A DNA stretch of 64,000 nucleotides from a phage: NCBI GenBank assembly GCA_012411765.1, contig GCA_012411765.1_3031.1; one strand, 5' to 3'. Below the pieces are notes generated by a model. That model saw only the letters and a list, made by a program, of their open reading frames with translations. It was not told the DNA's origin and ran no database searches. The position numbers and the translations under genes were made by a program. Shown one piece after another: positions 56,885 to 61,920 of this stretch (positions are counted from its first letter, which is position 1; each line of letters opens with the position of its first letter).

Positions 56885-56935
56885 TTTGTATTCCTCCGTA
56901 GTTGATAGTTGTATAGTACCACAGAGGAACGGTCT
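56885..56935 (-). promoter_or_regulatory. promoter-leader cassette copy
   Basis: gtagttgatagttgtatagtaccacagaggaacggtcttgtaaac read directly. Confidence 0.5.
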
Positions 56936-57348: not shown

Positions 57349-58317
57349 TTATTTCAGAAGAGTAACCTCAGCAATTTCTTCCCAACCGTTTTTGTCGGTC
57401 ATAATAAAGTCAGCAAGATAAAGTGCAGTACGCAGTGAAACATTGCGTAAACGGTTAACATTGACTTTCATCCATGATAATGCTTTATAAGTTTCTTCAT
57501 CAGAAAGACCGCGCTTTTGCATCATGTCGGTTGAAAGAATAACATCTTCAACCCTAACCATAATTTCTTCATTAGTGTGAACACCCAAATCCAAATAAAC
57601 TGAGCGGGACACTAATGCTTGTAAATGTGGAGCAAGTTTAGTACCACGGTCTAATTCGCGGTCAATATCAACGTTTGTAATAAAAACAATCGTTCCTTTA
57701 AATTCAAACTCACGGTCAATGCCTTTTTCTTCTAAGTAAGAAGATGCAGTGCTCCAGCAGACTTTACGGGTCTCTCCAGTGTCCAGAGCAGCTTTCAGAA
57801 GATTAAGAATGTCCATATCAGAGAAAACATCCACATCATCAATCAAAAGGACAGAATTCTCTTCACGATTATTCCAAAGCTGCTCATAAAGACCGATACC
57901 AGAGATTTTACCATTAATGCTTTTATACTCAATGTATCCAATATCATTTGCTTTATTTAAAGCTTTATCTAAAGAATACGTTTTACCAATACCTGCTGCT
58001 CCCGAGATAATTAATGAACGAATGTTTCCGTTAATAATACCATTCGTCATCATTCCCATAACATTAAATCTTTTATTAATGCGGGTTTTCATATCTTCAT
58101 ACGATTCTTTAACTTCTTCAACTTTTACACCATCATATGAAATGTCTGATTTGTAAACCCAAACACCGCGACGTTTACCGTCAATTTCAACAAAAACTTT
58201 ACCATCTCCTTGCGCATCTACCGGAGCATTATCTGGGAACCATTCGCCTAAGAGCTCAAAAGTTCCAGAGATTTCTTTACCGAAGTAGATACCCTTATTG
58301 ATAGTTACAGTTTTCAT
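57349..58317 (-). CDS. P-loop (AAA-like) ATPase, about 322 aa
   Basis: Walker A GAAGIGKT, Walker B LLIDDVD; start MKTVTINKG after promoter-leader cassette. Confidence 0.6.
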   Translation of the reverse strand: MKTVTINKGIYFGKEISGTFELLGEWFPDNAPVDAQGDGKVFVEIDGKRRGVWVYKSDISYDGVKVEEVKESYEDMKTRINKRFNVMGMMTNGIINGNIRSLIISGAAGIGKTYSLDKALNKANDIGYIEYKSINGKISGIGLYEQLWNNREENSVLLIDDVDVFSDMDILNLLKAALDTGETRKVCWSTASSYLEEKGIDREFEFKGTIVFITNVDIDRELDRGTKLAPHLQALVSRSVYLDLGVHTNEEIMVRVEDVILSTDMMQKRGLSDEETYKALSWMKVNVNRLRNVSLRTALYLADFIMTDKNGWEEIAEVTLLK

Positions 58318-58380
58318 TTTATTCTCCAAATCCGTATCAGTTGATAGTTGTATAGTACCATAAAGCTTTATGCTTGTAAA
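58318..58380 (-). promoter_or_regulatory. promoter-leader cassette copy
   Basis: Near-identical to 31625..31687. Confidence 0.5.
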
Positions 58381-58412
58381 CCGTTTTGTGAAAAAATTTT
58401 TGAAATAAAAAA

Positions 58413-58430
58413 GGGAGCCCGAAGGCTCCC
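58413..58430 (-). terminator. hairpin GGGAGCC-CGAA-GGCTCCC followed by T-run (minus strand)
   Basis: Inverted repeat immediately downstream of the nucleotidyltransferase-fold ORF. Confidence 0.5.
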
Positions 58431-58432
58431 TA

Positions 58433-59446
58433 TCATTTATAATAACTTCGATGGTTTTCAAGATAAACCCTCTCAAGGAAGTCATCCCAGAAACCCATGT
58501 CTACTTTTTGCTGCATACCGTTCTTAGAAGCTTCAATGGATGCTGCTTCTACTTGATCGACCACATCTTCCAAAAACTCTTGAACAGTTTTAAATGGGTG
58601 TTTACCCAACTTCACGTCGAGAATAAATGGAGCGTCTTGAAGTGGATAGACTAAGTCACCAGTTTTGTAAATTTCCAATAGTTGGAGTCCACCACGACAA
58701 GCATGACTCAGAGCTTTCCAGTCAATGCCCTCATTCGCTTCAGCTTTACGAGCACGTTCGCCGTATTCAGCATCAAGTTTATTCAAAGACTGCTTAAGCT
58801 CAATAAGAGAAAGCGTTGTCTGATATTTACGACCCAACACAGTGTAAAACGTTTGTGGACCTGTTTTCTCATGATTATGGAACACCCATTCACAGAATTC
58901 GTTTTCTGGAAGACGATGCTTAATATCTTCAACTTTAGTACGACGCTGCTTAATGGAACCGTCTTCTTGGTAATCAACCCATTGCTCAGGGATTTGATTA
59001 ACTACTTTCAATACATCGCGTAATGCAGCCAAACGAGAACCCTTGACGCCGTATTTAGAAGCTTGCTTGCGGACATATCCTAAATAGGATTTCATGTTAG
59101 TCGTATAAAAACGAGAACGGTTGTCTTGAATAAACTTCCACACATCAGGCAAATCTGATTTAACTACTAGCTCAGGTGGAGTGTGAAGCATATCCAATGC
59201 TACGGTTTCACCATCTGCTGCTAATTTAAAGAAATACTTAAGACTATACAATTCGTGGTCAATATCATCTTTAGTGTTTTTAGATGATGTGTTGTTGGTA
59301 TTTTTACTCATATGCTCTTTAACATTTCCGATAAGAATATCACGAGCAGGAGGAACAAAGATTTCTTTAAAATCTACATCAGATTCTGGGGTAGAAGTTC
59401 CATAAAGATGACTACCAAAATAGCTTTTCATTACTGTTTTCATCAT
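58433..59446 (-). CDS. nucleotidyltransferase-fold protein (Pol-beta superfamily signature), 337 aa
   Basis: N-terminal FGSHLYGTSTPESDVDF fits G[GS]x(9-13)Dh[DE]h; start overlaps upstream membrane ORF. Confidence 0.55.
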   Translation of the reverse strand: MMKTVMKSYFGSHLYGTSTPESDVDFKEIFVPPARDILIGNVKEHMSKNTNNTSSKNTKDDIDHELYSLKYFFKLAADGETVALDMLHTPPELVVKSDLPDVWKFIQDNRSRFYTTNMKSYLGYVRKQASKYGVKGSRLAALRDVLKVVNQIPEQWVDYQEDGSIKQRRTKVEDIKHRLPENEFCEWVFHNHEKTGPQTFYTVLGRKYQTTLSLIELKQSLNKLDAEYGERARKAEANEGIDWKALSHACRGGLQLLEIYKTGDLVYPLQDAPFILDVKLGKHPFKTVQEFLEDVVDQVEAASIEASKNGMQQKVDMGFWDDFLERVYLENHRSYYK

Positions 59447-59904
59447 TCAGCCTTATATTCAATAACAGGACATACTTTAGCTTTACGAGCTTTTAAAAAT
59501 TCAACGATAATCGATTTCTTGGGTTGAATAGGAGGTAAACCTTTATACGCCCTATCAATATTTTCTACGTGTAAAGCATAATCCTTTTTCCATTTATAAT
59601 CTTTATATTTTTCACGCAAATGTGCAGGAATAACAAATGAACCGATAATAAGTAAAACAACCAAAAGCGCAAGTATAAATGCCGATGGAAGAAGAGTCCA
59701 TAAACTACCGAAAATAAGCCAACGTTGTAGGCTTTCTGCACAAATAATTGTTAGCCCTACGAGTATAGCACATCCAAAAATAGAAACGAAAAATGCAGGA
59801 ATGGCAATAGACCAAAAATATGCGCATAGTGTCTTAGGTCGTTGCCATTCATCGTTAAACAATTTGAATAATTTATAATGCCAAGAGTTTTCATTAATAA
59901 TCAT
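59443..59904 (-). CDS. membrane protein (153 aa, multiple TM segments)
   Basis: Hydrophobic segments read from translation. Confidence 0.5.
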   Translation of the reverse strand: MIINENSWHYKLFKLFNDEWQRPKTLCAYFWSIAIPAFFVSIFGCAILVGLTIICAESLQRWLIFGSLWTLLPSAFILALLVVLLIIGSFVIPAHLREKYKDYKWKKDYALHVENIDRAYKGLPPIQPKKSIIVEFLKARKAKVCPVIEYKAE

Positions 59905-59906
59905 AA

Positions 59907-60428
59907 TTATCCTTTCATTGAAGGCGTAACGGTTGTTAAATACTTAATCATAGCTTCAGCTTCTGATTTTGATAATGAAATTTCTCCATTGTTTTGACGA
60001 ATAGAAATAAAATCCGGATGACGGTCACCACCAGCTTTTAAAACACACATATAAGTATCAGTTTCACCTTCAATATTTGAAATGATTGAAGCAGTTCCGC
60101 ATGAATGTGGTTTTTGATAAATCAATACAGCTTTTCTTCCGCCATTTGACTGCTCATAGGCTTTTAATACATCAAACAAATCAGTTCTTTTATCGATAGC
60201 TAAAATGTTATTTTCATCTTCAATGTTAAATCCTTCGGATACTTTATAAAGTGTTACCCATAAATCACCAATGTCAATAACAGCATTTACTTTTCCACGG
60301 CTTTCAAGAGTATGACAAATTTTCTTGATTTCGTCATAACTCATTTTAATAATATCATCTCCTTGACTAAGGAAGATGTCATTTTCAAATTCAACACGAA
60401 TTAAACCACTTCCACTTGAAATAAACAT
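59907..60428 (-). CDS. hypothetical protein (173 aa), paralog of next ORF
   Basis: Shared motifs GFNIEDEN versus GFNIESES and C-terminal YLTTVTPSMKG versus YLDSVIPTMISK. Confidence 0.45.
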   Translation of the reverse strand: MFISSGSGLIRVEFENDIFLSQGDDIIKMSYDEIKKICHTLESRGKVNAVIDIGDLWVTLYKVSEGFNIEDENNILAIDKRTDLFDVLKAYEQSNGGRKAVLIYQKPHSCGTASIISNIEGETDTYMCVLKAGGDRHPDFISIRQNNGEISLSKSEAEAMIKYLTTVTPSMKG

Positions 60429-60434
60429 ATTTCC

Positions 60435-60980
60435 TCACTTTGAAATCATAGTTGGAATAACAGAATCAAGATAAGTCTTTAATGCAATAGCTTCGTCTTT
60501 GGTAAATGTGACAATATGCGCTCGAAAATCATCAATTTGACGAATAGTTAAGACATCTCCATCTTCATAACATTTTGATACGTTTAAAGCAGTTTCATCA
60601 TTCTGATCGCAAGCGTTAGTAATAATAGCATTGCAATTTTTAAGCCATTTTAAACTATGTTTTCTTTCATTAGAATAATAAAAATATTTAATCTTAGTTA
60701 TAAAATTATCCCAATTATTAATTGATAAGCATATTGACTCGCTTTCAATGTTAAATCCTGGGCATAAAGAATAAAAATGAATTTTATGCTCATCATTAAT
60801 GCTTACAATTTTATCAGTATAAGAATTTTCAATTTGGGTTAAATGAATAATTTCATTAGGAGTAAAATATAGCATATCGTCTTCTTGTGTCAAACGATAC
60901 ATATTATTTACTTTTTCTATAGCCAATTCACCAAAAAGTGAACTAACTTCTAATACTAATCGTTTCGCCTCGCTCATCAT
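60435..60980 (-). CDS. hypothetical protein (181 aa), paralog
   Basis: See previous. Confidence 0.45.
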   Translation of the reverse strand: MMSEAKRLVLEVSSLFGELAIEKVNNMYRLTQEDDMLYFTPNEIIHLTQIENSYTDKIVSINDEHKIHFYSLCPGFNIESESICLSINNWDNFITKIKYFYYSNERKHSLKWLKNCNAIITNACDQNDETALNVSKCYEDGDVLTIRQIDDFRAHIVTFTKDEAIALKTYLDSVIPTMISK

Positions 60981-61723: not shown

Positions 61724-61920
61724 GCCATGTGAGTTGCAACTTCATCACACATATTATAACGTTTCTTAAGAAGTTCTACAAGTTCTTCACTAGTAACTTC
61801 ATCCATGTCGACGAAAAAATCACCATTAATGATGACGTAGATATTTCCTTCTTGATTAAGTGCTTCAATTTTCATGATGTTCTCCTCTTTATCCGATGGT
61901 TGTATAGTACCACAGCTCAA
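61687..61920 (-). CDS. hypothetical protein (77 aa)
   Basis: ORF after hairpin-promoter cassette. Confidence 0.35.

Follow-up and report, generated by a model that had tools for sequence, protein, structure and literature searches.

The window analysed here is a stretch of 64,000 nucleotides (nt) of phage DNA (contig GCA_012411765.1_3031.1 of GenBank assembly GCA_012411765.1). We studied two genes on its minus strand, one for a nucleotidyltransferase (NTase) of 337 amino acids (aa) at 58433..59446 and one for a P-loop ATPase of 322 aa at 57349..58317. In the direction of transcription, the order is a membrane protein open reading frame (ORF), the NTase gene, a terminator-like hairpin, an early promoter, a GGAG element, the ATG at 58317, and the ATPase gene. 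The genome is of the T-even (Tequatrovirus) type, and a 3-kb query around the pair was 97–98% identical to many T4-like and T2-like phages. Judged by sequence, the source is a T2/T4-like phage, and the two ORFs are orthologues of T4 nrdC.11 (NTase) and nrdC.10 (ATPase). Synteny with the annotated T4 genome identifies the pair as these two genes. A first-pass annotation of this DNA had given neither gene an assigned role in the classical T-even gene set. Both genes are members of that set, and their domains were published in 2006, when nrdC.11 was placed with the COG3541 nucleotidyltransferases and nrdC.10 with the AAA ATPases (Nolan et al. 2006).

The NTase shares 99% identity with its T2 counterpart and 100% with that of Shigella phage SF2-1. 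T4 NrdC.11 (NP_049709) and the other T-even orthologues share its position between nrdC and rI, its length, and its RefSeq name, which is “nucleotidyltransferase.” The phage studied here differs from T4 in having a 153-aa membrane ORF upstream of the NTase gene where T4 has mobD; otherwise, we found no substantive difference. “RNA repair pathway DNA polymerase beta family protein” is the product name in one GenBank record. In many GenBank and UniRef entries, the products of both nrdC.10 and nrdC.11 are called “thioredoxin,” whereas “prohead core protein” or “HNH homing endonuclease” is used in others. The first of these labels was probably propagated from the nrdC at the head of the gene names. 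In T4 RefSeq, mobD.4 also bears the name [quoted passage not shown] Literature searches on the two genes returned no functional study, and no experimental role in T4 was described in the papers searched.

The translated N-terminus of the NTase ORF is MMKTVMKSYFGSHLYGTSTPESDVDFKEIF. Within it, the motif FGSHLYGTSTPESDVDF fits the signature hG[GS]x(9-13)Dh[DE]h. It provides G11-S12 as the nucleotide-binding loop and D23-V-D25 with two metal-binding carboxylates (59372..59416, minus strand). The G-S...D-x-D motif was thus present in the 337-aa ORF as first claimed. When every ORF of 60 aa or more was scanned across the six frames of the window, the pattern occurred a single time in about 32,000 residues, at the NTase site. 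Shuffling of the NTase protein produced the pattern in 149 of 20,000 cases (0.75%). Hence, the motif is by itself only modestly significant.

The family assignment came from profile searches. The NTase scores 43.8 bits with Pfam PF10127 (RlaP), for which the gathering cut-off is 23 (E 3.3e-11), and in PHROG, it belongs to phrog_388, “nucleotidyltransferase” (7e-137). An exhaustive search of cluster representatives gave 3,421 relatives at E<=1e-3. All of the 40 relatives sampled at 34–55% identity match PF10127 and no other Pfam family. With ORF, synteny, Pfam, and model in agreement, we regard it as almost certain that the protein is an RlaP-family, Pol-beta-type NTase, and the fold proposed in the first-pass annotation was correct.

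Conservation was followed in the same 40 representatives. G11, S12, D23, D25, and D63 are invariant in 40/40, so that the GS and DxD residues are conserved across homologues. Further invariant residues are L14, G16, S22, N57, Y124, and Y132 in the N-terminal half and R231, W243, K244, H248, R251, P268, and K279 towards the C-terminus. D63 (59258..59260, minus strand) is likely the third catalytic carboxylate that the first-pass annotation had wished to locate. We assign it because it is invariant and stands at the start of a beta strand in the predicted model; the assignment refers to topology and secondary structure. In the C-terminal domain, the motif D-W-K-A-x-S-H-A-x-R covers residues 242–251 (58694..58723, minus strand). 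It probably lines the cleft for RNA and nucleoside triphosphate (NTP), a role assigned by analogy with the description of the cleft of PfRlaP, an RlaP from Pseudomonas.

The AlphaFold2 model of the NTase has a predicted local distance difference test score (pLDDT) of 93.4. In the model, the active-site motif is carried by strand 3–10, helix 12–15, and strand 24–31, with D23 and D25 at the start of the latter, and D63 is at the start of strand 62–68. The NTase domain comprises residues 1–113, followed by a long helix (119–150), a helical domain (214–308), and a last helix (317–336). Structural matches of the model are exclusively nucleotidyltransferase folds, two-domain types among them. Three conserved aspartates are common to NrdC.11 and the RlaP family, whose assayed members are PfRlaP and PaRlaP. 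The predicted order of an N-terminal NTase domain, a helical C-terminal domain, and a long terminal helix resembles that of RlaP. In the PfRlaP crystal structure, the final helix packs back onto the N-terminal domain (PMC12776372). In a PDB copy without PfRlaP, neither sequence nor profile searches turned up a solved relative of the NTase or of the ATPase. The nearest solved fold is HalB, which primes synthesis on a tyrosine. Two tyrosines of NrdC.11, Y124 and Y132 on helix 119–150, are invariant in the pattern G-Y-x3-Q-A-x-K-Y-G-x-K-G-S-R.

The first-pass annotation had named minimal NTases, CD-NTases, CCA-adding enzymes, and antibiotic NTases as candidate families. None of these fits, and the family is RlaP. 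A CD-NTase is recognised by a sequence or structure match to the family together with a linked effector gene, and NrdC.11 does not show this combination. For minimal NTases, the MntA model scored 13.2 bits against a cut-off of 60 and NTP_transf_2 13.9 bits against 21. No HEPN gene adjoins the NTase, and the typical MntA size is about 100–140 aa, compared with 337 aa here. The CCA-adding/poly(A) polymerase family gave no Pfam report at E<=0.1 and was not among the top structural matches. The two-domain kanamycin nucleotidyltransferase/ANT(4’) enzymes show 8–11% identity to NrdC.11 without a sequence match at the level of families, and they act on small molecules where RlaP acts on RNA ends. PADLOC gave no match for the NTase or the ATPase, and NCBIfam gave none above cut-off.

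The name RlaP was reportedly coined by Burroughs and Aravind in 2016. According to later papers, it is derived from the adjacency of PF10127 genes to RNA ligase genes, and RlaPs, including those of jumbo phages, were predicted to replace nucleotides lost from cut RNAs before ligation. A preprint of December 2025 (PMC12776372) lists T4 NrdC.11 as an RlaP, in similarity-network cluster 5 with “unknown function.” Both genes with their folds are therefore already known from the literature and RefSeq, and so is the placement of T4 NrdC.11 in RlaP. In the preprint, PfRlaP and PaRlaP from Pseudomonas added 1–2 nucleoside monophosphates (NMPs) to RNA 3’-OH ends with a preference for Mn2+ and for mimics of broken tRNA and were inactive on DNA and protein. 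On such a mimic, RlaP extended the 5’ half at its 3’ end in preference to the acceptor 3’ end. The product ends suit ligases joining 3’-OH to 5’-phosphate, and RlaPs partly rescued the aminoacylation of a repaired tRNA that was one nucleotide short. In total RNA, rRNA-sized species, full-length tRNA, and cleaved tRNA were labelled with little NTP specificity, and E. coli proteins were not labelled (PMC12776372).

As the assayed RlaPs belong to another sub-cluster, we examined the ties of the phage sub-clade itself to RNA repair. The motif D-W-K-A-x-S-H-A-x-R is specific enough to retrieve 156 cellular relatives. The cellular set consisted of 80 loci with full-length relatives (32–54% identity), found when one genome of each prokaryotic species was scanned, and the viral set consisted of 78 loci. 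Repair genes were sought by tblastn within about 6 kb (cellular) or 10 kb (viral). At least one RNA-repair gene was found in 17/80 cellular loci: RtcB in 10, Pnkp in 7, Hen1 in 7, T4-type Pnkp in 4, Ro60 in 2, and Rnl1 in 1. Clustering of the neighbours likewise recovered RtcB, Pnkp, Hen1, and Ro60 as recurrent proteins among mostly unrelated genes, and these were confirmed by Pfam. Among the viral loci, Pnkp, Rnl1, or RtcB was present in 5/78.

Several of these arrangements are operons. In four loci (L056, L067, L074, and L079), Hen1, Pnkp, and the NTase follow each other with gaps of 0–14 nt. In locus L050, a T4-type Pnkp gene lies 18 nt upstream of the NTase, and RtcB lies 2 kb downstream. 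Locus L007 has the order NTase, T4-type Pnkp, and Rnl1, which is the T4 tRNA-repair set as one cluster. It stems from a 4-kb contig of a Bathyarchaeota metagenome-assembled genome (DAOUTL010000132.1, 80–3626, one strand), and this contig may be viral. A Nitrosospira contig (locus L041, CAADGK010000054.1, 1675–13378) carries Ro60, RtcB, a NrdC.11-like NTase, Hen1, and Pnkp on one strand and is an unusually complete RNA-repair island. NrdC.11 relatives are thus encoded beside RtcB, Pnkp/Hen1, or Rnl1, as is the case for RlaP. What is new here is that full-length relatives of the phage type, beyond the assayed Pseudomonas sub-cluster, are found in Pnkp/Hen1, RtcB, and Pnkp/Rnl1 operons.

In phage collections, the NTase occurred in 1,518 records. 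Sorted by the host word in their names, records of NTase, T4-type Pnkp, and Rnl1 ran almost in parallel and numbered 286/286/287 for Klebsiella, 83/83/83 for Shigella, 56/56/56 for Enterobacter, and 69/70/69 for Acinetobacter; these counts are totals rather than an intersection and are uncorrected for relatedness.

We propose that T-even phages have in NrdC.11 a third enzyme, accessory to the healing and sealing of tRNA, which refills excised nucleotides, and we give this reading a probability of roughly 0.6. In the T4 pathway, anticodon nucleases leave a 2’,3’-cyclic phosphate and a 5’-OH, Pnkp converts these to 3’-OH and 5’-phosphate, and Rnl1 seals the break. RloC also excises the wobble nucleotide, a lesion that was proposed in 2008 to defeat repair by Pnkp and Rnl1 and hence leaves a gap for an NrdC.11-like enzyme to fill. 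The phage enzyme would most likely act between Pnkp and Rnl1. A host anticodon nuclease would first cut the tRNA and sometimes trim 1–2 nucleotides, the known example being RloC with the wobble base. Phage Pnkp would then strip the 2’,3’-cyclic or 3’ phosphate to give a 3’-OH. To this end, NrdC.11 would add 1–2 NMPs, using its G-S loop, D23, D25, D63, and two divalent ions, probably Mn2+. RNA ligase 1, which requires 3’-OH and 5’-phosphate, would seal the break, and a fraction of the repaired tRNAs would be back to the right length and function. NrdC.11 would act in trans with pseT and rnlA, which are located elsewhere in the genome. The same role has already been predicted for jumbo-phage RlaPs. 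The T4 segment from nrdC.11 to mobD.3 can be deleted, and the dispensability of nrdC.11 fits an accessory function.

Several points weigh against this proposal. The authors of the preprint state that random nucleotide addition would often lead to a non-functional tRNA, and the enzymes they assayed belong to sub-cluster 1a, whereas T4 NrdC.11 is in cluster 5 (PMC12776372). The papers searched contain no experiment with a phage RlaP. The PF10127 match of NrdC.11 spans residues 7–135 alone (model positions 23–142 of 249). Beyond its end follows, in this clade, a beta-rich stretch some 60 residues long (approximately 151–212), which is a difference from the RlaP family. Unlike RlaP genes with linked ligases, T-even nrdC.11 is not linked to ligase genes: it does not adjoin pseT or rnlA, which are about 80 kb away in T4, and the window holds no RNA-repair gene. 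Of the cellular loci, 63/80 have no repair neighbour, in part because many contigs are short. Finally, the matching host counts may simply reflect the near-universality of all three genes in T4-like phages.

Some of these points would also suit an enzyme that acts on RNA 3’ ends in another way, by repair or maturation of the tRNA CCA end or by tailing host or phage RNAs for stability. The assayed RlaPs label rRNA-sized RNA and full-length tRNA too, with little NTP specificity; nrdC.11 is unlinked to pseT and rnlA in T-even phages; and the papers searched report no assay of a phage enzyme. We nevertheless consider such a role unlikely. RlaP favours the 3’ end of the 5’ half over the acceptor end, and NrdC.11 has no match to the CCA-adding family. 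Classical genetics shows that T4 tRNAs whose genes do not encode CCA require the CCA-adding enzyme of the host, and this speaks against a CCA-end role. The location of relatives in Pnkp/Hen1/RtcB operons points to internal breaks instead.

NTases of other families transfer nucleotides to proteins, as MntA-type antitoxins do when they AMPylate HEPN toxins, or to small molecules, as do the aminoglycoside and lincosamide nucleotidyltransferases. By such a reaction, NrdC.11 might inactivate a toxin or metabolite of the host. We judge this to be quite improbable: the MntA score is far under the 60-bit cut-off, neither Pfam nor PADLOC matches such families, the assayed RlaPs leave E. coli proteins unlabelled, and the neighbours of the relatives are RNA-repair genes and not HEPN toxins.

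The neighbouring ATPase was considered as a possible partner of the NTase. As first claimed, a terminator hairpin and a promoter cassette are followed by a P-loop ATPase with the sequences GAAGIGKT and LLIDDVD, and all of these elements were found. Walker A (GAAGIGKT, residues 106–113) lies at 57979..58002 and Walker B (LLIDDVD, residues 157–163) at 57829..57849, both on the minus strand. In an alignment of homologues, G106, G109, G111, and K112 of Walker A and D160, D161, and D163 of Walker B are invariant, as are N215 (sensor-1), R238, and R296. The predicted model (pLDDT 89) consists of an N-terminal beta domain (residues 1–61), an AAA+ core, and an alpha-helical lid. It gave 144 matches in the PDB at E<=1e-3, and the best 50 of these 144 are all AAA+-type ATPases, with generic matches to RuvB, PspF, RFC, ORC/Cdc6, Hda, and dynein at E around 1e-5 and template modelling (TM) scores around 0.4. 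Hence, the call of a P-loop ATPase was right, and the fold is AAA+. The protein belongs to phrog_1250 (1e-166), whose function is not annotated. As all Pfam AAA models fall below their cut-offs, no AAA+ sub-family is assigned.

T4 NrdC.10 (NP_049708) shares Walker A, Walker B, the sensor-1 Asn, conserved arginines, and the lid with generic AAA+ proteins. An additional beta domain of some 60 residues at the N-terminus sets it apart from RuvB, PspF, RFC, ORC/Cdc6, and Hda. Homologues from jumbo phages are without this domain. One of them, in locus L166 of Agrobacterium phage Atu_ph07 (933–1721 and 3752–4798), lies about 2 kb from a gene for Thg1, the tRNA-His guanylyltransferase, which also repairs RNA ends. 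The observation is limited to one case, and the proximity may be due to chance.

A two-gene module of NTase and AAA+ ATPase, for example, in counter-defence with the ATPase delivering or remodelling the NTase substrate, would explain why the two genes are adjacent on the same strand of the window. The ATPase is directly downstream of the NTase in 37/78 viral loci, and both genes stand within a block of dispensable accessory genes. Their transcription signals are separate, however. A terminator-like hairpin (58402..58431, minus strand; GGGAGCC-TTCG-GGCTCCC with a T-run) closes the transcription unit of the NTase. A T4-early-type promoter (58352..58380, minus strand; TTTACA-17-TACTAT with an extended TG, TG-n-TACTAT) starts that of nrdC.10. 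Both are held in the gap of 115 nt between the two genes. In the viral loci, the gap between the two genes measures anywhere between 112 and 2290 nt. No ATPase lies within 10 kb in 41/78, some of which have an NTase with 82% identity, and the ATPase is present in 0/80 cellular loci. In Vibrio phage D480, the two homologues are 68 kb apart in unrelated neighbourhoods, one by rIIA/rIIB and dda and the other between nrdAB and topoisomerase II. Record counts of NTase and ATPase diverge (286 versus 149 for Klebsiella, 59 versus 121 for Vibrio), and rI, tk, and other unrelated genes are steadier neighbours of the NTase than the ATPase is. In T2 (locus L002, PV958097, 5441–6057), a ModA-like gene of 486 nt, annotated as “RNA polymerase ADP-ribosylase,” and an ORF of 102 nt lie between nrdC.11 and nrdC.10. 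The pairing implied by the first-pass annotation thus failed the tests of co-occurrence, and we hold a functional module to be very unlikely. As the linkage tests fail, the adjacency is an inherited T4-like gene order. NrdC.10 is an AAA+ ATPase with its own early promoter and is independent of NrdC.11.

The start of the ATPase gene required correction. A longer ORF of 378 aa (to 58485) is an artefact, and its first 56 codons cross the terminator and the promoter. Translation instead begins with the ATG at 58317, which follows the GGAG ribosome-binding site, and this gives 322 aa. We set it there because RefSeq gene calls and the N-termini of the 26 aligned homologues agree. Automatic gene calls of public assemblies take the over-long ORF, as in the cluster representative P0121 (377 aa, Logan assemblies), which therefore has 55 spurious N-terminal residues.

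The resemblance of the NTase model to HalB raises the idea of oligonucleotide synthesis as in the Hailong system, and even of mimicking HalB to hold a DNA-gated channel of the host closed. HalB (PDB 9dbh) is a 217-aa enzyme which makes tyrosine-primed long poly-dA and works with the HalA channel. We see such synthesis as highly improbable. HalB shares 15% identity with NrdC.11 without a sequence-level match, and no HalA-like partner was found at the NrdC.11 locus. The membrane ORF at hand has 153 aa, is replaced by mobD in T4, and has no counterpart in the cellular loci. RlaPs add just 1–2 nucleotides and do not extend DNA, and the context of RNA-repair operons favours repair. The special case in which NrdC.11, instead of or besides repairing RNA ends and alone or with the membrane protein, makes a short nucleic-acid signal that shuts a Hailong-type abortive-infection channel, a counter-defence by mimicry, is extremely improbable; we keep it in mind because HalB is the nearest solved fold and two tyrosines are invariant.

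The membrane ORF (59443..59904, minus strand, 153 aa) precedes the NTase gene and forms its context. The ATG of the NTase overlaps the TGA of this ORF (ATGA), as first described, and the predicted protein contains two hydrophobic segments, each about 36 residues long (25–60 and 62–98), and belongs to phrog_944, a membrane protein. At the same position, T4 has a mobD homing endonuclease. A homologue is located upstream of the NTase in 45 viral loci and overlaps its start in 12, and none was found in the cellular loci. We rejected the membrane protein as an obligate partner of the NTase, given mobD in its place in T4, a distance of 350–1200 nt in most T4-like loci, and no cellular copy; its adjacency to the NTase, too, is a matter of inherited gene order.

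In the window, a -10/leader cassette, GGTACTATACAACTATCAACT, is present three times on the minus strand (56900–56926, 58339–58365, and 61891–61917) and precedes nrdC.8-like, nrdC.10, and mobD.5-like ORFs. It looks like the extended T4 early-promoter consensus. Because it recurs, three mechanically called ORFs start with “...GTIQLST....” Two tandem paralogues of the T4 y05I/MobD.1-like protein are encoded at 59907–60428 and 60435–60980 on the minus strand. Both contain PF24449 and PF24448 (“putative transcription factor”), and the annotated T4 region has one such gene, mobD.1. Rfam and tRNA scans across the whole window gave no match.

As a discovery, the present finding is of small importance, because the genes, the folds, and the RlaP assignment were already in the literature and RefSeq, and a third T-even tRNA-repair enzyme has already been proposed by others. 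One false lead is removed, namely that the neighbouring AAA+ ATPase is a partner of the NTase. If the proposed role of NrdC.11 is true, T-even phages with a third tRNA-repair enzyme could survive anticodon nucleases that remove nucleotides, such as RloC.

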